A DNA stretch of 64,000 nucleotides from a virus (IMGVR_UViG_3300005613_000034); one strand, 5' to 3'; shown: positions 30,235 to 64,000, numbered from the stretch's first letter. The notes: a model not told the origin generated them from the letters alone. Numbers and translations are program-made.

Positions 30235-33200
30235 TTATTTTTTTGGTAAAATATCGCCCGCAGTTAGACACTTTGGACAAAATTTATGATTACCAGAAAT
30301 ATATCCGTGTAGTGGGCACACACTGAAAGTTGGGGTGATTGAGACATATGGTATTGAATAATTAGTAAAAATTTTCTTAATTAGATTTTTTACTGATTCA
30401 CCATTAGCTTTATGTTCACCTAAAAATATATGAAAAACCGTATTATGAACGAAAACCATACAATCATTACCAGCTAAATAATTATGGTTGTTTTTTGTTG
30501 TTAAATCATAAAACATATTATCTTTAACATTATGTTTATTTATAGATTTAACACGCGTTACAGGTAAAAATCTGGTATTTCTATTAGATTTTTGTGTTTT
30601 TATATAATTTTTATCTTTTGTTAAATTTAAGTTGTTTTTTTCTTGTGTTAAATAATAACTTGGTATTTGAAATATATAAATTAAAACTTCATTTATTTTT
30701 TTAGGTTGTCTTTTTCGTAATGAAAATGGAATTCCTGCTATAGAAAAAATTTCTTTTAAATCATTTTTAAGATTTTCTGATACAGTATAATATTCTCCTG
30801 TTCCTTGTTTTTTATTAATATGCCCATCTGAGTCTAATAATCCACTAATAAAGTGAAAAACATTATTTTTATTAAAATTATTTTTTATATAATTTGAAAC
30901 ACGAACATTATATGTTTTAGAACCAGGTTTAAATCCACATAATTTAAAAAAATTAATTATATTTTCTTTTGATGTTGGCAAAATCTTTAAATTTTTAGTC
31001 CTTTTATCTATATGTGACTTTGATATATTGGAATTGAAATTATTATTAAGAACATTTATAATTTTATTTATTGTTTTATCATTAGTTGAAAAAAATCTAA
31101 TTTTTTCTTTTTTAATATTATTATTCCCTCTATTATCATAATATGTACTCATACTACCATCCCCAATATAAAATCCTAACAACCACATTAAATCATTATT
31201 AATTTTTGAAGATTTATTTTTATATAAATTTGTTGATGTTTTTAAAATATAATCATTTTTTAATAATTCATCTGCTCGTTTTTCTATTATTTTTTTTGTT
31301 TTTTTATCATATACAAAAAATGGGTGCCAATTAGATGTAACAATATCTAAACCAAATTCACCAATTATTTTAATTTTATCTTTTTTAGAAACATCTATTT
31401 TCATTGCATCTATAACATCATCCCATTCACTAACATTTTTTTCTTTATTATAACTTAAAACTTTTAAATTTTTTAATTTTTTAAAATTATAAACTAAATC
31501 TTCAATTTTCATTAATCCTTTATTTGTTAAAATATCATTTCCTTTTTCTATACATCCACCGTTATAAATAGTTTGAATATCGTTCTGATTATCTAAAATA
31601 TTGAATAAATTCTTTTTAGAATCAACTTTTACTTGTGTTGAATTTGTGTAATATGGCGCCGCTTTATATTTTTCATAATTTTCGTTATTAGCGACTATTA
31701 TATCTGCATATTTTTTCTTGTCTTGTGCAGCAAATCTTCGGGTTACTCCTTCTGCTGGTGTAGCTTCCAAATTATATTCTTGCCCATCTTCTGCTTTATA
31801 TTGTTCTAATCTATTTTTCATATGATTCATTACTTTAATTGTAAATGCTTTACCTTCTTTAGATAATATATCCTTCCCTAAAAAGTTTTCGCATGATTCA
31901 TTCATACCATTCAATCCTATCGTGTTGAAATGGTTTGTCCAATATTGCCCTGTGTTTTGTTTGATATGGCGCATATAAAATTTTGTAAATGGAAAAAGTC
32001 CTTGTTCTGTCCATTTTTCAACAAACTTTCGTTTTTGTCTTAAAATTGTTGCTGACGCGTCCATTAATTCATCTAATCTATTAAAATAATCTCTTTCTGA
32101 ATGAGCAAGGTATCCTATTCTTGGCATATTTATAGTTACTACTCCCACCGAACCAGTTAACGGGTTTGCTGCAAACAACCCTCCTCCCCTTTTATTTAAT
32201 GTTTTTTTCTCTAACCGTAATCTGCAGCACATACTTACAGTATCTTCTGGGCTCATATCTGAATTAATATAATTTCCAAAATAAGGTATTCCATATTTTG
32301 CTGTAGCATCCCAAATTATTTTATGATTAGGATTATTCCAGTCAAAATTTTTATCAATATTTATTGTAGGAATTGGAAATGTAAAAACCTTTCCATTTTT
32401 ATCCCCTTCTAGATAAACTTCAAATAAAATTCTATTGAATAAATCAATTTCGGGTTGGAAATCTTTATAATTAACATTTTGAATTTTTCCACCTATAATA
32501 ACAGGAAGATTTTCCATATGTTTCGGGGGAGTTAAATCAAGCGTTATATTTGAGAAAGTTGATTGCCCACCAGATCTTGTGGTTACATTCATATTAAATA
32601 CAAATTCCTGTAGTGCTTGTTTAACTTCTTTTTCTGTTAATCCATCAAATCTAATAAAAGGGGCTAAATATGTATCAAAATTTGCAAATGCTTGGGCCCC
32701 AGAAAATTCATTTTGTGTTGTAAATAGAAAATTGACTATCTGCCCTAATGCACTTCTAAAATGTTTTGGGGGTGCTGATTCAATTTTTGATTCTACTCCT
32801 CCAAATCCTGTCAACAATAAATCTCTTAAATCCCATCCTTGACAATATGTACTTAAAGATCCTAAATCATGAATATGTAAATCTCCTTCAAAATGATATT
32901 TTGCAACTTCGGGGGCGAACACTTTATTCAACCAATATGTAGAACTAACTTTTTGTGCTATATTATGATTTAATCCTGATAATGAATATCGTGAATTTGA
33001 ATTTTCTTTTACTCTCCAATCAGCTTGGTTTAAATAATTATCTATTACAGCAGTATCTTCTACTATATTTTTAAAATTTCTTAAACTTTCGTGTTGGTGT
33101 CTATATAAAATATAAGATTTTGCAACTTTATCATGCCCGCGTTTAATAAGTGTCCTTTCGATAATGTCTTGAATTTCTTCAACAGACATCTCTTTTTTCT

Positions 33201-33360
33201 TTTCTTTTTTAATATTTTTTAAAATTTCATGTAGTAACACATCAAATTTTTCTTTATCATTGCCGCCTACACTTTTAACAGCATTCCATACGGCCCTTTC
33301 TATCTTTTCTTCATGAAATTTTTCCCTAGCTCCGTTTCTTTTTATAATAAATTCTATCAT
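30235..33360 (-). CDS. nrdD: anaerobic ribonucleoside-triphosphate reductase (class III, NrdD-like) with N-terminal ATP-cone, interrupted by an intein
   Basis: ATP-cone IIKRNGAREKFHEEKIERAV; SMCCRLRL resembling the NrdD thiyl-Cys region; C-terminal Cys cluster plus GY; extein ~670 aa. Confidence 0.75.
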   Translation of the reverse strand: MIEFIIKRNGAREKFHEEKIERAVWNAVKSVGGNDKEKFDVLLHEILKNIKKEKKKEMSVEEIQDIIERTLIKRGHDKVAKSYILYRHQHESLRNFKNIVEDTAVIDNYLNQADWRVKENSNSRYSLSGLNHNIAQKVSSTYWLNKVFAPEVAKYHFEGDLHIHDLGSLSTYCQGWDLRDLLLTGFGGVESKIESAPPKHFRSALGQIVNFLFTTQNEFSGAQAFANFDTYLAPFIRFDGLTEKEVKQALQEFVFNMNVTTRSGGQSTFSNITLDLTPPKHMENLPVIIGGKIQNVNYKDFQPEIDLFNRILFEVYLEGDKNGKVFTFPIPTINIDKNFDWNNPNHKIIWDATAKYGIPYFGNYINSDMSPEDTVSMCCRLRLEKKTLNKRGGGLFAANPLTGSVGVVTINMPRIGYLAHSERDYFNRLDELMDASATILRQKRKFVEKWTEQGLFPFTKFYMRHIKQNTGQYWTNHFNTIGLNGMNESCENFLGKDILSKEGKAFTIKVMNHMKNRLEQYKAEDGQEYNLEATPAEGVTRRFAAQDKKKYADIIVANNENYEKYKAAPYYTNSTQVKVDSKKNLFNILDNQNDIQTIYNGGCIEKGNDILTNKGLMKIEDLVYNFKKLKNLKVLSYNKEKNVSEWDDVIDAMKIDVSKKDKIKIIGEFGLDIVTSNWHPFFVYDKKTKKIIEKRADELLKNDYILKTSTNLYKNKSSKINNDLMWLLGFYIGDGSMSTYYDNRGNNNIKKEKIRFFSTNDKTINKIINVLNNNFNSNISKSHIDKRTKNLKILPTSKENIINFFKLCGFKPGSKTYNVRVSNYIKNNFNKNNVFHFISGLLDSDGHINKKQGTGEYYTVSENLKNDLKEIFSIAGIPFSLRKRQPKKINEVLIYIFQIPSYYLTQEKNNLNLTKDKNYIKTQKSNRNTRFLPVTRVKSINKHNVKDNMFYDLTTKNNHNYLAGNDCMVFVHNTVFHIFLGEHKANGESVKNLIKKIFTNYSIPYVSITPTFSVCPLHGYISGNHKFCPKCLTAGDILPKK
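30442..31554 (-). mobile_element. intein (371 aa) with LAGLIDADG homing endonuclease
   Basis: N-splice GG|CIEKGNDILT; LLGFYIGDGS and ISGLLDSDGHI LAGLIDADG motifs; C-splice VFVHN|T. Confidence 0.8.
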
Positions 33361-40925: not shown

Positions 40926-41121
40926 ATAATAATTTTTTTCTAATATATCCAACGCGGACATAATCTTCATAACTAATGTCTTTCATAAAATCTAAATCTT
41001 TAATTGTTCCCCCACCCCGCCTAACAATATCATGTAAATCCGCAACATTAATATATTGATTATCCGCTAAATGTTTTAAACTATGTTTTACAAATTTTTT
41101 ATTCTTCATATCCAACACCAA
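40924..41121 (-). CDS. hypothetical protein (65 aa)
   Basis: ORF upstream of junction motif. Confidence 0.35.
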   Translation of the reverse strand: MVLDMKNKKFVKHSLKHLADNQYINVADLHDIVRRGGGTIKDLDFMKDISYEDYVRVGYIRKKLL

Positions 41122-41282
41122 AAATAATTACATTTCCATTATCAGAATCTTGTTCAACATATGTTTCTTTATATATGTTATTCCATTCTTCATCTGATGC
41201 AACTTTCACTTCTTCGTTTTCATCTACTGATTTTAATAGTTTTATTAATTCTTTTACTTTCATTTATTTCACCTCGCTTTAG

Positions 41283-41344
41283 TGGATAGAGAAGGATTCG
41301 AACCCTCTAACGCGTAATGTTTAGCACCTCTAAACTATCTATCC
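41283..41344 (-). ncRNA. tRNA-like minihelix / degenerate tRNA (acceptor stem + T-arm intact; D and anticodon arms replaced by one short hairpin)
   Basis: 5' GGATAGA / 3' TCTATCC-A acceptor; T-arm GAGGG-TTCGAAT-CCTTC; 62 nt total, too short for a canonical tRNA; overlaps ligase stop. Confidence 0.45.
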
Positions 41345-42438
41345 ATCGGATTTATATTGATTGCTACTGGAAATCGCGGCACCCCGTCTTCCGAAAGGTT
41401 TTGGTATCGGATTGTTGCGAGCTTACCTATATATTTATCTTTGTCAATCAACAATTGTTTGTAGTATTCTTCGCCCCCTTTAATTCCTGCACCAAATTCT
41501 TTTCCATTTTTATCAATAACAATCAATTTTCCTGCCATCCCCGAACGATTACCACTACCCTCAACAATATCTTTTATAACAAATTCTTCATCCACAAACT
41601 CTTTATATTTCAAAAGATATTTACTTCTCTTATTTTCATATTCAGAATTTGGAATTCTAACCATAACTCCCTCATATCCTTGTCTTACATAATTATCGTG
41701 AGCCGCCTGAACTTCTAAATGATTATTAGCTTCTTCATTTTCAACAAATTTTAAATATTTCATATCCCCAAACTTATTGATTTCATCTTTAATTAAATTA
41801 AATCTATTTACAAAATTCCAAGTTTCATTTTTCATATCACCATCAAAAATCCAATACTTAATCAATTTTTCGCTATCGGCTAAATCTTGACTTGTTGGTT
41901 TTTGTTGTTTAACTAATGAAATAACTTTTTCAAATGTTTCATCGTGTGCATAAACTTCTCCGTCTATAATCCAGTCCGGATGTTCATCAAAGAACGGTTT
42001 TAATGCTTTGCTTATATGTGGGCATGACTTATATTCTTTCCCATTCCTTGTATATAATCCATCTTTAGTTGCAATCATTCGACACCCATCTATTTTTGGG
42101 CTTACCAAAACCGGAAACGGAACACTATCTTTGTATTGAGTATATTTATGTGCTAACATAGGGTCAAAATATTTCTTTGCCGTATCAATCGCGTTGATGT
42201 CTTCGGTGTATCCTTTATCAATTTTCTTCTGCCATTTTGCTTTGGCTTCAAGCTGTGCTTGTTCTTCGGGTGTCGTTTCATTACTTCGCCCAATATTTTT
42301 TCCTTCACAAATAGTAGGCTTTGATTGAATCAATTTTCCCCCAACTTGCCCAATTATTGTATAAAAGGTATTTCCTTTAACAACAATTTCGTATTGTTGT
42401 ATTGCACCCGTTGTTGTTCTTTTATATATCTTATTCAT
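41335..42438 (-). CDS. ATP-dependent DNA ligase
   Basis: motif I KIDGCR; motif III-like KYWIFDG; EGVMVR; LLKYK motif V. Confidence 0.85.
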   Translation of the reverse strand: MNKIYKRTTTGAIQQYEIVVKGNTFYTIIGQVGGKLIQSKPTICEGKNIGRSNETTPEEQAQLEAKAKWQKKIDKGYTEDINAIDTAKKYFDPMLAHKYTQYKDSVPFPVLVSPKIDGCRMIATKDGLYTRNGKEYKSCPHISKALKPFFDEHPDWIIDGEVYAHDETFEKVISLVKQQKPTSQDLADSEKLIKYWIFDGDMKNETWNFVNRFNLIKDEINKFGDMKYLKFVENEEANNHLEVQAAHDNYVRQGYEGVMVRIPNSEYENKRSKYLLKYKEFVDEEFVIKDIVEGSGNRSGMAGKLIVIDKNGKEFGAGIKGGEEYYKQLLIDKDKYIGKLATIRYQNLSEDGVPRFPVAININPMDR

Positions 42439-52727: not shown

Positions 52728-52759
52728 ATATATCCCTCCAATAGTAGTTTTTAGCCCGT

Positions 52760-52780
52760 GCTTTGATGAGTAATCTCTGC
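52760..52780. repeat. 21-nt repeat GCTTTGATGAGTAATCTCTGC, copy 1
   Basis: identical copies at 52922-52942 and 53312-53332. Confidence 0.85.
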
Positions 52781-52793
52781 TCGGACATATTAC

Positions 52794-52817: not shown

Positions 52818-52921
52818 TTTCTATATATTCATTCAATCTATTTCAACATTATCAGAGATGATACTTTTTACCTGACGCTGATATCTGCGTATATCACAGT
52901 CATCTTCAAATGTTGGCTCTC

Positions 52922-52942
52922 GCTTTGATGAGTAATCTCTGC
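52922..52942. repeat. 21-nt repeat, copy 2
   Basis: identical sequence. Confidence 0.85.
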
Positions 52943-52963
52943 AAGAACATTTAGGATAGGTTA

Positions 52964-53289: not shown

Positions 53290-53311
53290 TAATCCACCTC
53301 TTTTTTCATTT

Positions 53312-53332
53312 GCTTTGATGAGTAATCTCTGC
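53312..53332. repeat. 21-nt repeat, copy 3
   Basis: identical sequence ~20 nt upstream of GAGGTGG SD and ATG 53289. Confidence 0.85.
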
Positions 53333-54105
53333 AAACGCATAAAGAGTATAGGTAAATCTAATATCGTATCTTTCTATCGTTGGTTTCATAAACCGAACAT
53401 TCAATTAATCAATATTTAGATTAATAGATGTTAAAAATTAGAAAGAGAATTGAATTAAATTTACCCATAATTCTTTATTTCTCTATCTATTAGCTAATTG
53501 CGTTTTTTCACTAATAGAATTAGGACTTTCACCTGTTTTAAGTATTCATTAAATACTTACTTCCGACACTAACTTCATAAGTAGAAACTTTCAAAAACTA
53601 TATTTAGTTTTATCCCGTGTGCCTTATAGTTTAACCTTTTTACAAATAGAACGCTATTTGCAACTGATTAAACCTTTTGCGTTCCAAAAAGAAATTAATT
53701 CTTTTTAGTGAATAGGTTTTTTTGCCTATTCTTAAAGTGCATTACTTACATTTTTTTAAATCTTAAAATAAAACTTTTTTTCTCGTGTTAATCCACGAAA
53801 AGAAAAAATTTTAAGTTATTGGTTGCGACTTAAAAAAATTTCGTGCAATTTAATTTTTCTTGTGGAAATAAAAAATCTCATAACCACTCAACCAAAAATT
53901 TAATTTTTGGATTAAAGAAAAAGCCATTAAAAAAATGCTTCCTCTCTACAAATAGGAATAAAAAAAATCTCTCATTCTAATATATAAACTTTTGCTTAAA
54001 ATTTTCGGTGTGTTTCTCAAAAAGTGGGTTTAAGTGCATTATAACAATATACATAACGCACAAAATCCCTAAAACTTATACATAACTCATCTCCAAAATT
54101 TTTTT

Positions 54106-55591: not shown

Positions 55592-56644
55592 ATGACATCA
55601 AAAAAATCTGATATTGATAGAACAAATCTTTCTGACATACCTTCATATAGCAAAATGTTTGATAAAATAAAATCAATAGACATCAACGAATACAAAGGAT
55701 ATACCCGGAAAAGAATGATTTGGGTAAAGGCAGCCGCTACTATTCTACTATTAACGGGGTGTAGGGTTACTGAATTACTTTTACTTAGAAAAAAAGATAT
55801 TCGATTCTTTGGATTTAATAATAATGAATTGGTTGGGCAGTTTGATATTTCCCAGATTGCATCAATGCAATTTAATTTATATACCGAGAAGAACCGTAAA
55901 AACAAGTATAGAGTTGTTCCTGTTGTAAAAAACAGTTTTTTTATTGACATGATATCTATTGTATATGATTTTTATAAAACCTTTGATTATGATGAGACAT
56001 ATTTATTCCCACTCACAAGGCAGGGGGTATGGAATGGTATAAAGGCGGTTTTTGGAAATAATATGTTTCCACACTTCCTTAGACACATTTCAGTAACTAA
56101 TGATACTAAAGCTGGTATTTCTCCATCTATTATTAAATCTAAATATGGGTGGACGGATCTTAGACCACATTCAATTTATTCACACTTGAATTGGTTTGAT
56201 ATTCAAACCGCACAAACTTCTGCATGGGGGGAGGCCGCACCCGCTCCAAAAGCCATTATTATTGAACGCCCTAGTTGGATGAAAGGGTCTTATGCCCAAA
56301 TGACCAATTATAATAAAAAAGTTGAGCATGCATTACATAATAATCAAGATTTTGTTCCGCGAGATTTTGATACTATTGAAGAAGCACTTAAAAATAAAGT
56401 TGAAATGGGGGATTCAATAGATGGTAAAATTGTTGTTATTTTGTCTAGAGAGACCGATTTTGATAAAGCTAAAAAGAGGTTTGACGGGAATAAATATATA
56501 TTGATTTATGCTAAAAGTAAGGAAGCTATTAAAAAAATGGAAAGTGTTACTAATGCGTCCGCTCAAAAACGAAGCCCGAATCCAACCCCCCAACCTCCAA
56601 CAAAAACAGTTCCTAAAAATACTCCTCAATTAGCTATGGTGTAG
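55592..56644 (+). CDS. tyrosine recombinase / integrase
   Basis: box I-like LLLTGCRVTELLLLRKKDI (Arg); HFLRHISVT (H-x-x-R); HSIYSHL (Tyr); ~120-aa Pro-rich C-terminal extension. Confidence 0.75.
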   Translation: MTSKKSDIDRTNLSDIPSYSKMFDKIKSIDINEYKGYTRKRMIWVKAAATILLLTGCRVTELLLLRKKDIRFFGFNNNELVGQFDISQIASMQFNLYTEKNRKNKYRVVPVVKNSFFIDMISIVYDFYKTFDYDETYLFPLTRQGVWNGIKAVFGNNMFPHFLRHISVTNDTKAGISPSIIKSKYGWTDLRPHSIYSHLNWFDIQTAQTSAWGEAAPAPKAIIIERPSWMKGSYAQMTNYNKKVEHALHNNQDFVPRDFDTIEEALKNKVEMGDSIDGKIVVILSRETDFDKAKKRFDGNKYILIYAKSKEAIKKMESVTNASAQKRSPNPTPQPPTKTVPKNTPQLAMV

Positions 56645-63270: not shown

Positions 63271-63606
63271 ATGATAGAAGTTATATTAATATGTATTTTT
63301 GGGGTAATTTTTGGTGAAATAATTTATTTATTTGTTATTCCAAAAAAGGATTTAGAAAAAGATGGTTATTTTATTTCTAAATTATTTGCACTAACAATGG
63401 GGGTTTGTATTCCAACGATTGGATACATCGGGTTCTTAATGTTATCACAAATAGATGAAGTAATTAAACTGTTAATGAATACTGTTATGTCTCCTACAGT
63501 TTTAGGACTTTTGGGGGCAATTGGGGTGCTATTAATAGTGTTCGGATATTTCAAATTGAATGAAATGTTAAGAAGATATCTTGACAAGAGACGTGAAAAT
63601 CAATGA
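63271..63606 (+). CDS. membrane protein (3-4 TM)
   Basis: hydrophobic segments. Confidence 0.4.
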   Translation: MIEVILICIFGVIFGEIIYLFVIPKKDLEKDGYFISKLFALTMGVCIPTIGYIGFLMLSQIDEVIKLLMNTVMSPTVLGLLGAIGVLLIVFGYFKLNEMLRRYLDKRRENQ

Positions 63607-63875
63607 GAAAAATATGTGTAGATTTTGACAAAACACTATGCAGTGATGATAAATTTGGAAAACCAAATAAAAAAGTTGTAGCTTACCTGAAACGTGAACA
63701 ACGTTTTGGGGCGCAACTTTATATCAACACTTCCAGAACAAATTTACATCATCAAGAAATAATTAATTGGTTAAAAAAACACAAATTATTTGATATGTTT
63801 TTTAATATTTATTATAAAAAACCAGAAGCTGACGTTTATGTTGATGATAAGGCATTAAATGTTAATGATATATAG
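63603..63875 (+). CDS. small HAD-superfamily-like phosphatase domain protein
   Basis: motif I CVDFDKTLC (DxDxT). Confidence 0.5.
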   Translation: MRKICVDFDKTLCSDDKFGKPNKKVVAYLKREQRFGAQLYINTSRTNLHHQEIINWLKKHKLFDMFFNIYYKKPEADVYVDDKALNVNDI

Positions 63876-63948
63876 GGGCGGGTAGCTTAGTGGTTGGAGC
63901 ACTCGACTGATAATCGAGAGGTCGGGAGTTCAAGTCTCCCCCTGCCCA
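63876..63948 (+). tRNA. tRNA-Ile (anticodon GAU)
   Basis: GGGCGGG/CCTGCCC acceptor with one G-U pair; D stem GCTT/GAGC; anticodon arm CTCGA-CTGATAA-TCGAG; T-arm GGGAG-TTCAAGT-CTCCC; discriminator A. Confidence 0.85.
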
Positions 63949-63952
63949 TTCA

Positions 63953-64000
63953 AGCCCCGTAGTGTAGCGGCCAAGCATTCAGGACTTTGAATCCTGCGAC
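63953..64000 (+). tRNA. tRNA-Gln (anticodon UUG), truncated at window end
   Basis: A1-start AGCCCCG acceptor, archaeal-type; anticodon arm CAGGA-CTTTGAA-TCCTG; CGAC variable region. Confidence 0.7.

Follow-up and report, generated by a model that had tools for sequence, protein, structure and literature searches.

The 64,000-nucleotide stretch of viral DNA analysed here (IMGVR_UViG_3300005613_000034; "the window" below means this whole stretch) carries the replication module of an uncultivated large AT-rich phage with ~29% G+C. Genes for a family-B DNA polymerase, NrdD with an intein, a D5-type primase-helicase, a DNA methylase and a DNA ligase are found in it, nearly all of them on the minus strand, in a region extending up to ~55 kb. 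The subject of this analysis is a 62-nucleotide (nt) element which overlaps the 3' end of the ligase gene and which is a real tRNA look-alike, with every part of a tRNA kept except the anticodon arm. The element sits at a cistron boundary in a tightly packed run of same-strand genes, and the locus is laid out as follows, where "both variants" means the sequence of the window and the one other variant found in relatives.

41335..42438, minus strand: ATP-dependent DNA ligase, 367 amino acids (PF01068 and PF14743, PHROG 114)
41344..41283, minus strand: anticodon-arm-less tRNA-like element, 62 nt, GGAUAGAUAGUUUAGAGGUGCUAAACAUUACGCGUUAGAGGGUUCGAAUCCUUCUCUAUCCA, covering positions 1-71 of the Rfam tRNA model
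41338..41344, minus strand: 5' strand of the acceptor stem, GGAUAGA, which is also the last base of the ligase Met codon and the Asp and Arg codons
41319..41337, minus strand: U8 and A9 followed by the D arm, with stem GUUU/AAAC and the 9-nt loop AGAGGUGCU containing G18 and G19
41337-41335, minus strand: ligase stop codon UAG, inside the element
41308..41318, minus strand: single-stranded linker AUUACGCGUUA, 11 nt, made up of position 26, about 5 nt in place of the anticodon arm, and the variable loop
41291..41307, minus strand: T arm, GAGGG-UUCGAAU-CCUUC
41283..41290, minus strand: 3' strand of the acceptor stem, UCUAUCC, and discriminator A73; CCA is not encoded and CUA comes next
41278..41282, minus strand: 3' trailer CUAAA, the same in both variants
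41275-41270, minus strand: Shine-Dalgarno sequence GAGGUG, 7 nt past A73
41099..41275, minus strand, Shine-Dalgarno sequence included: next cistron, 54 amino acids, ATG at 41263, a different gene in every relative

A first-pass annotation of the window had described a tRNA-like minihelix at this place, and a sequence check reproduced its coordinates, minus-strand orientation and sequence, together with a 10-nt overlap with the ligase open reading frame (ORF): the ligase C-terminus reads ...NPMDR-UAG, and the first 10 nt of the element take in the final G of the Met codon, then Asp, Arg and the stop. The acceptor stem is perfect, as had been claimed, with 7/7 base pairs (bp) in GGAUAGA/UCUAUCC and an unpaired discriminator A73. 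The T arm is likewise canonical, its 5-bp stem containing one G.U pair (G51.U63) and its 7-nt loop UUCGAAU fitting UUCRANY. The covariance model also places, with high posterior probability, a D stem (G10-U13/A22-C25) which is preceded by U8 and A9 and has A14, G18 and G19 in its loop. In the Rfam tRNA alignment, the 17-nt anticodon arm is reduced to 5 nt, and A26 and the variable loop are kept; since there is no 5-bp stem with a 7-nt loop bearing an anticodon, the element is indeed too short to decode. The hairpin GUUUAG-AGGUG-CUAAAC, which had been taken to replace both the D and the anticodon arms, stands as a fold and equals that of the minimum-free-energy structure, but it is the D arm itself, to which the thermodynamic fold adds two pairs. 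We also considered this hairpin as the anticodon arm of a D-armless tRNA with the "anticodon" GGU, and this was ruled out by the 2-nt connector, by A14 and G18G19, and by the model alignment. The minimum free energy of the fold is -17.5 kcal/mol (z = -2.15), and that of the second variant, represented by contig L014, is -20.5 kcal/mol (z = -3.6). The 12-bp stack of acceptor and T stems, the T loop and the D-loop GG which forms the elbow are retained, and a U lies at position -1 before G1.

The homology to tRNA can be put in numbers. The element scores 37.6 bits against the Rfam model RF00005, whose gathering cut-off is 29, in an end-to-end alignment, with an E-value of 8.7e-7 on a local slice and of 2.5e-4 when the whole window was compared with all 4227 Rfam families. 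Permissive filters are needed for this match, and the default gathering run missed it. Within the 64-kb window the tRNA model matches the element and a true tRNA-Ile, and nothing else; ARAGORN, like the default Rfam run, reported the tRNA-Ile alone. ARAGORN made no call on the element in normal or relaxed (-ps) mode and gave inconsistent output in its extreme and mitochondrial modes. The check for a canonical alternative fold, as proposed in the first-pass annotation, yielded no consistent tRNA in the relaxed, intron, pseudogene or mitochondrial modes, so no such alternative fold exists.

The conservation of the element was examined by comparing the contigs of ligase relatives, which were collected in a protein search and range from 100% to below 50% identity. 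The element lies at the corresponding ligase end on other metagenomic phage contigs. It is identical in L012 and L027, which are the same phage as the window, and it occupies the same place, with 3 differences in 67 nt, in L014, L015, L026, L029 and L030. The ligase of this lineage is 80% identical to that of the window in protein, 81% in DNA and 65% at third codon positions. Two of the differences in the element fall on variable D-loop positions and the third, U63->C, turns the G51.U63 wobble into a G-C pair, so that no pair is broken; the linker is unchanged. The probability of three or fewer differences in 67 nt is 6e-4 at the overall divergence of the ligase and 2e-9 at its third-position divergence. 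The conserved island follows the element closely: between the window and L014, high identity sets in at G1 and lasts until 5 nt past A73, and identity collapses 9 nt upstream of G1 and again soon past the trailer. The element is absent from L013 (ligase 83% identical to the window), L028 (81%), L016-18 (76%) and L019-25 (64-69%), and in lineages without it the ligase ends in ...P[IVM]DR and the ribosome-binding site of the next gene follows immediately. The gene after the ligase differs among the window, L013, L014 and L016, and by this comparison the element travels with the ligase and not with the downstream gene. The ligase tree has the form ((L013, L014), window), L016, and L013 and L014 are 91-95% identical downstream except for a cassette swap which starts about 19 nt before the ligase stop. 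Judged from such alignments, the 3' end of the ligase gene is a mosaic junction, which explains why sister lineages lack the element, and the absence in L013 is best read as replacement of the allele by recombination.

Beyond these two variants the ligase-end element has a narrow distribution. No near-identical phage genome is present in INPHARED, the best ligase relative in a cultured or deposited phage is 44% identical, and none of the distant ligase loci in IMG/VR (33-44% identity) has a tRNA-like element downstream. Species-representative genomes contained neither a relative of the ligase nor a match to the 3' half of the element, and a metagenome scan returned the two known variants and nothing further. 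When 212 kb of related loci were searched with a covariance model built from these two variants (R1), no additional copy came up, and the short matches of the model were partial alignments of ordinary tRNAs. As a separate observation, one ligase variant in the L013 cluster (P0122) has its stop changed from TGA to TGG and gains 11 residues by extension into the leader of the next gene; the ligase end therefore tolerates short extensions.

How the element came to the ligase end can be approached from the relatives that lack it. Their final ligase codons read ATGGATAGATGA in L024, ATAGATAGATGA in L016 and ATAGATAGATAG followed by AGGAGG in L028, and because these ligases also end in ...P[IVM]DR, the codons that supply GGAUAGA are ancestral to the ligase. 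The ligase end ...(A/G)GATAGATAG and the tRNA-like 5' end GGATAGATAG share 9-10 nt, and the element probably reached the ligase by illegitimate recombination across this microhomology. Under such a capture the 5' acceptor strand would consist of ancestral ligase codons, and the 3' strand would not need to evolve complementarity to them. A full-length parent tRNA was not found, as patterns on the acceptor, T arm or D arm gave unrelated phage tRNAs only. A tRNA-Phe(GAA) with an identical acceptor stem occurs in L006, L007 and L011, which is probably a coincidence. In L025 (ligase 64% identical; positions 2006-2691), the ligase is overlapped at its end by a Vsr/DUF559-like endonuclease gene, after which, 600 nt downstream of the ligase, there is a genuine tRNA-Leu(UAA); this phage group thus does have tRNA genes close behind the ligase.

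The element is a member of a recurrent class. IMG/VR was scanned for a D-loop motif, TAGNNNAGNGGT, located 12-18 nt before a T-loop motif, a distance too short to hold an anticodon arm, and the census given here is based on this one D-loop motif and two exact T-loop motifs, GGTTCGAATCC and GGTTCGATTCC. With GGTTCGAATCC there were 19 matches in all of IMG/VR, and 13 of them (12 distinct) had at least 6/7 acceptor pairs, a T stem of 5/5 and a D stem of 4/4 in 57-59 nt. Another match, in L156, has a fully paired acceptor stem and lacks the 3' strand of the D stem, and the remaining ones are out-of-register ordinary tRNAs. With GGTTCGATTCC there were 78 matches, among which 67 (about 40 distinct sequences of 55-59 nt) had at least 6/7 acceptor pairs, nearly all with full T and D stems. 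By chance, 0.25 and 1.0 matches with at least 6/7 acceptor pairs would be expected for GGTTCGAATCC and GGTTCGATTCC, respectively. In total, complete cloverleaves of 55-65 nt without an anticodon arm are carried by more than 80 IMG/VR viral contigs. That only a single case with a fully paired acceptor (L156) lacks the D stem argues against random deletions.

The shared architecture is a 7-bp acceptor stem, U8 and A9, a 4-bp D stem with a GG loop, an unpaired bridge of 6-11 nt, a 5-bp T arm and a discriminator; the window element has all of these and is retained at the same position across diverged phages. In the other members, the bridge between D and T arms measures 6-10 nt and usually ends in ...GUC, which is the retained variable loop, and in the 55-nt forms position 26 is joined straight to that loop. 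A few variants (in L073, L156 and L137) retain a short remnant of the anticodon stem, closed by a loop of 4-5 nt. Among 11 members, 98.9% of the pair cells are paired and double changes are seen at 12/16 pairs, figures for which the acceptor helix had served as a filter and the D and T helices had not. A covariance model built from these 11 members with the window and L014 left out (R2) recognised the window element at full length with 45.3 bits (E = 9e-12) and the L014 variant with 49.0 bits, and the tRNA-Ile of the window scored 39.8 bits. All seven members compared with the Rfam tRNA model matched it (28.5-57.5 bits), six of them end to end without the anticodon arm, and ARAGORN called none of the members tested. 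The stems contain G.U pairs, for example in the D stem GCUC/GAGU, which points to a structure that is read on one strand, most simply as RNA. On these sequence data, the anticodon-arm-less elements of phages can be regarded as a widespread group of the tRNA-like or t-element kind.

Members of the class are found in three settings: tRNA arrays, positions directly behind ORFs, and the interval that separates a terminator from the small-terminase gene. Some belong to or adjoin a phage tRNA array and share the strand of its tRNAs, and others are solitary, with no tRNA in the fetched flanks. Individual members are listed below.

L154, 4132-4188: between tRNA-Val and tRNA-Gln
L159, 8030-8087 (= L058, 117..60): 1 nt before tRNA-Met
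L161, 5321..5265: adjoining a tRNA with the stop anticodon UUA (suppressor)
L123, 2839..2781: glycine-type acceptor GCGGGUG, U73, CCA encoded
L036, 9107..9051; L039, 4470..4413; L155, 13871..13814; L157, 1191..1134: further members of different acceptor types
L073, 1383-1447 and 1939-1995: further members
L200, 6384-6440, plus strand; L196, L214, L217, L223 and L181; about 40 more IMG/VR contigs (L163-L240): family upstream of terS

Two kinds of solitary member lie at gene boundaries. First, a conserved small Cys-rich ORF (...CCVDYGTCMCS) has its stop 7 nt before each of the members at L153 5474-5530 and L160 6221-6279; these two members form a syntenic pair, are ~71% identical and differ by four fully compensatory pair changes with zero disruptions. 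Both have an alanine-type G3:U70 with A73, as does L151 5512-5569. Second, the family upstream of terS (ATCCCCUUAGCUCAGUGGUAGAG...; ATCCCCTTAGCTCAGTGGTAGAG...CCAGGTTCGATTCCTGGAGGGGATA) exists in 55- and 58-nt forms on dozens of contigs of 20-60 kb. Its members immediately follow an intrinsic-terminator hairpin, and about 20 nt further on comes the Shine-Dalgarno sequence of terS, which is followed by terL and an SPP1-type portal; the genes upstream vary. Fixed gene boundaries, compensatory change and the predominance of whole-arm loss over D-stem loss argue for a fold under selection.

What the fold may be selected for can be considered from the operon context. Between 39.5 and 44.5 kb there is no terminator-like site and promoter-like sites are not in excess, and transcription of the element as part of the operon is therefore expected. 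Like a t-element, it ends at a cistron boundary in what would be a co-transcribed unit, with the ligase stop overlapped and the next Shine-Dalgarno sequence 7 nt further on, and the phage's own tRNA-Ile, which also abuts an ORF stop and also has no encoded CCA, lends support to processing in such a setting. We propose, with about an even chance of being right, that the element derives from a tRNA and encodes a tRNA body that does not decode, which would be released as an RNA of ~62-65 nt when the operon transcript is cut at its borders. The path from transcription and in vivo folding through each cleavage step to any biological effect is predicted as follows. The transcript of the ligase operon would include the element, and its RNA would fold into the L-shaped upper part of a tRNA at times when terminating ribosomes are not unwinding it. 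RNase P may then cut before G1, next to the U at -1, and RNase Z or an equivalent may cut after A73, upon which the CCA-adding enzyme could complete the 3' end. Two outcomes would follow: the polycistronic RNA would be severed where the ligase meets the next cistron, and a stable tRNA-like RNA of roughly 62-65 nt would be set free. Processing may be partial, limited to untranslated transcripts, or directed mainly at the 3' border. The idea, already raised in the first-pass annotation, of a tRNA mimic that RNase P or the CCA enzyme would recognise, or of a processing signal at an operon boundary, would still fit best, given the recognised parts that are kept and the operon context. As to which of the two outcomes is selected, the distribution of the class leans slightly towards an RNA acting in trans: many members sit in tRNA arrays, where an extra processing signal is needless, and the released RNA may therefore be the selected product.

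The closest known counterparts are the t-elements of plant mitochondria, degenerate tRNAs at mRNA ends in wheat, at Arabidopsis nad6, ccmC and cox1, and at Brassica orf138 (PMC1920247, PMC5499578). The nad6 t-element has no anticodon arm, those of nad6 and ccmC overlap the 3' ends of their ORFs, and RNase P cleavage at these two yields mRNAs without stop codons (PMC1920247, PMC5499578). The cox1 t-element directs RNase Z cleavage, and an excised element can gain CCA (PMC5499578, PMC1920247). The phage element resembles them as a degenerate cloverleaf with both an acceptor stem and a GGTTCRANYCC T arm. However, plant t-elements belong to organelles with a protein-only RNase P and have degenerate D arms, whereas the D arm of the phage element is canonical, and processing has been mapped experimentally for several plant t-elements, whereas the phage element is known from sequence alone. 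With phage tRNAs (RF00005), the element shares an alignable acceptor stem, D arm, T arm and tertiary-pair nucleotides; unlike them, it has no anticodon arm, cannot decode and receives no ARAGORN call. Like the tRNA-like domain of tmRNA, which is matured by RNase P and charged without anticodon reading, it represents the upper half of a tRNA without an anticodon. In contrast, tmRNA has G3:U70, a stemless D loop, a long mRNA-like domain and SmpB, and in the window element pair 3:70 is A:U, the D arm has a true stem and nothing is inserted; an ARAGORN tmRNA search of the window was negative. The 12-bp coaxial stack with the T loop, which the element has in common with minihelix substrates, is the minimal unit that RNase P and the CCA-adding enzyme recognise (cited in PMC5499578, PMC6614837), and McClain, Guerrier-Takada and Altman reportedly found in 1987 that acceptor/T-arm minihelices suffice for both enzymes (cited in PMC5499578). 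Those substrates are laboratory constructs, whereas the element occurs as a gene in nature and has the D arm and the elbow in addition. The YrlA module and mascRNA are also non-decoding elbow/acceptor mimics handled by tRNA enzymes (PMC4201824), but the YrlA mimic is internal to a larger Ro60-binding RNA and mascRNA is eukaryotic and keeps a short anticodon stem, and Rfam runs on the window gave no sequence-model match to either. In full-text literature searches, which reached few subscription journals, no account of anticodon-arm-less tRNA-like genes in phages was found.

Several points weigh against a processed tRNA body. If RNase P cut at G1, the ligase mRNA would lose its final codons together with the stop, and in bacteria, unlike plant mitochondria, proteins made from stop-less mRNAs are tagged via tmRNA. 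Efficient cleavage looks costly, because the ...P[IVM]DR C-terminus is conserved in all relatives, and a terminating ribosome would unwind the 5' strand of the element. Within the fold, pair 15:48 would be G:A and position 21 is U, both atypical for a tRNA core. The closest ligase lineages, L013 (83%), L028 (81%) and L016 (76%), manage without the element, and the ligase-end element, of which only two distinct sequence variants were found, shows no covariation of its own. The class is also rare: one motif-independent case (L085 8397-8455, which has different D and T loops and an encoded CCA) was seen among ~375 tRNA-like hits in 829 kb, which suggests a frequency well under 1% of phage tRNA-like genes, and such rarity could also be obtained from sporadic deletions.

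That last point leads to the explanation that the element is a dead tRNA gene, in which the anticodon arm was deleted and which was fused to the ligase end by chance, without function and not yet reached by decay. Decayed tRNA-like sequences with unpaired acceptors or anticodon-stem stumps are indeed present in phage arrays (L073 1714-1770, L156 10870-10935, L137), real tRNAs are scattered near the ligase in relatives, as with the tRNA-Leu of L025, and neither the inability to decode nor the rarity of the class is surprising for such a relic. Against this reading, 3 differences in 67 nt with no pair broken compare with a third-position divergence of 35%, within an island whose limits match the borders of the element. 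In the class at large, exact loss of the whole arm with intact stems exceeds loss of the D stem by 12:1 in the complete GGTTCGAATCC scan, and syntenic pairs and families preserve the structure by compensatory changes. We consider a dead gene unlikely, and it retains the weight it does mainly because there are only two variants and the nearest relatives lack the element.

Another possibility is that the product acts in trans as a decoy, a CCA-tailed body without anticodon that titrates host or rival proteins recognising the acceptor, T arm or elbow; candidate targets would be RNase P, a synthetase, defence nucleases directed at tRNA, or toxins modifying the acceptor end, none of which would find an anticodon loop to cut or read. 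By keeping the D arm and the elbow of G18G19 and T loop, the element exceeds the needs of a mere cleavage signal, many members lie within tRNA arrays where additional processing signals are superfluous, and members derived from different isotypes keep isotype-like acceptors (G3:U70 with A73 in L151, L153 and L160; glycine-like GCGGGUG with U73 in L123). Phage tRNAs are known to counter tRNA-cleaving defences (PMC11464382). On the other hand, no candidate partner protein is encoded beside the element, and the solitary boundary members upstream of terS and after ORFs equally fit a role in cis, which leaves a decoy quite improbable at present. For the class as a whole, we would raise, as a speculation we ourselves doubt, that phages widely encode headless tRNAs which are matured like tRNAs and serve as uncleavable, undecodable mimics, either inhibiting or titrating tRNA-directed defence nucleases and acceptor-end toxins or, several members having the alanine-type G3:U70 with A73, being charged for a use outside decoding, and which would make up a new class of counter-defence or regulatory RNA.

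A feature that acts at the level of DNA, such as a scar of recombination at a module junction or an integration site, with no role for the RNA, is very unlikely. It would suit the mosaic junction at the ligase 3' end, where four relatives have four different downstream genes and L013 and L014 differ by a cassette swap, and an integrase-family ORF does exist at 55592-56644. The first-pass annotation, pointing to this integrase gene, had suggested a degenerate att-site remnant, and the element does resemble att-site tRNA fragments, which are likewise short, tRNA-derived and located in or near mobile elements. Such fragments are 3' parts only and form direct repeats flanking an island (PMC9897764), whereas the element has both acceptor strands and a D arm and has no repeat partner, there being no second copy of its 3' half in the window within 3 mismatches. 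The integrase-family ORF is also 14 kb off on the other strand, and the arrangement at the ligase end is repeated on other phage contigs; on these grounds the att-site reading is rejected. Furthermore, the G.U stem pairs of the class would be C.A mismatches on the opposite strand, and a junction scar cannot account for the fit to the tRNA model. Finally, a 22-residue C-terminal ligase tail made by read-through of UAG is scarcely credible: the frame is open for 22 codons past UAG, to a UGA in the next ribosome-binding site, in both variants (41278-41337; L014 1140-1212), but UAG is an ordinary stop that ends 7/33 long ORFs in the window, 2/3 of the substitutions would alter an amino acid, the tRNA-model match would be left unexplained, and the open frame is probably trivial because insert and empty sites differ by only 60 nt.

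The non-decoding tRNA body and its alternatives would have different consequences. Should the elements serve as processing signals, a logic of "tRNA punctuation", until now a feature of organelles, would be in use in phages, and at the ligase end RNase P would have a hold on the integrity of the ligase mRNA. Released RNAs with an action in trans would represent a new type of small RNA in phages, with a part in the current arms race over tRNA cleavage, and if the headless-tRNA idea is true, the ligase-end copy and the terminase-operon family would be members of a new phage RNA class. Phage annotation is blind to these elements because tRNA finders discard such sequences, and model R2 is a covariance model ready for a census of the class.

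Other features of the window are as follows. The start of a phage tRNA cluster is found at its end (63603-64000), where the truncated tRNA-Gln noted in the first-pass annotation was confirmed, with anticodon UUG, and is preceded by a complete tRNA-Ile(GAU); the resemblance to the element that the annotation had thought worth looking for was seen in neither, and neither encodes CCA.

63876-63948: tRNA-Ile(GAU), complete, starting on the base after the TAG stop of ORF 63603-63875
5 nt after tRNA-Ile: start of tRNA-Gln(UUG), cut by the window edge

The NrdD gene (1041 amino acids, 30235-33360, minus strand) is split by an intein with a LAGLIDADG homing-endonuclease domain. The ORF at 55592-56644 (plus strand) is a weak tyrosine-recombinase match (PF00589) and lies where gene orientation and GC skew flip near 55 kb, which may mark either a prophage border or a divergent module of a large phage; beyond it come methyltransferase, radical-SAM and heptosyltransferase-like genes and then the tRNAs. 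A direct repeat of 38 nt occurs three times (52751-52788, 52913-52950 and 53303-53340; 74-100% identity), and on the minus strand the repeats are the 5' ends of small ORFs, which open with ATG and continue with ..CAGAGATTACTCATCAAAGC. A set of small paralogous genes, with no relation to the element, is suggested by this. The recurrence of GGATAGA in hairpins at 52.1-53.0 kb, to which the first-pass annotation had drawn attention, is at chance level, with 9 matches against 6.8 expected and one of them in that region, and the repeats at 52.7-53.3 kb are the conserved 5' ends of these paralogous ORFs and not hairpins akin to the element. Lastly, 41283-41344 on the plus strand and 63876-63949 on the minus strand gave sub-threshold matches to the Rfam families "Plastid-ycf2 5'UTR" and "Plastid-psbI-rps4 3'UTR", and these two families seem to model antisense tRNA-like sequence.

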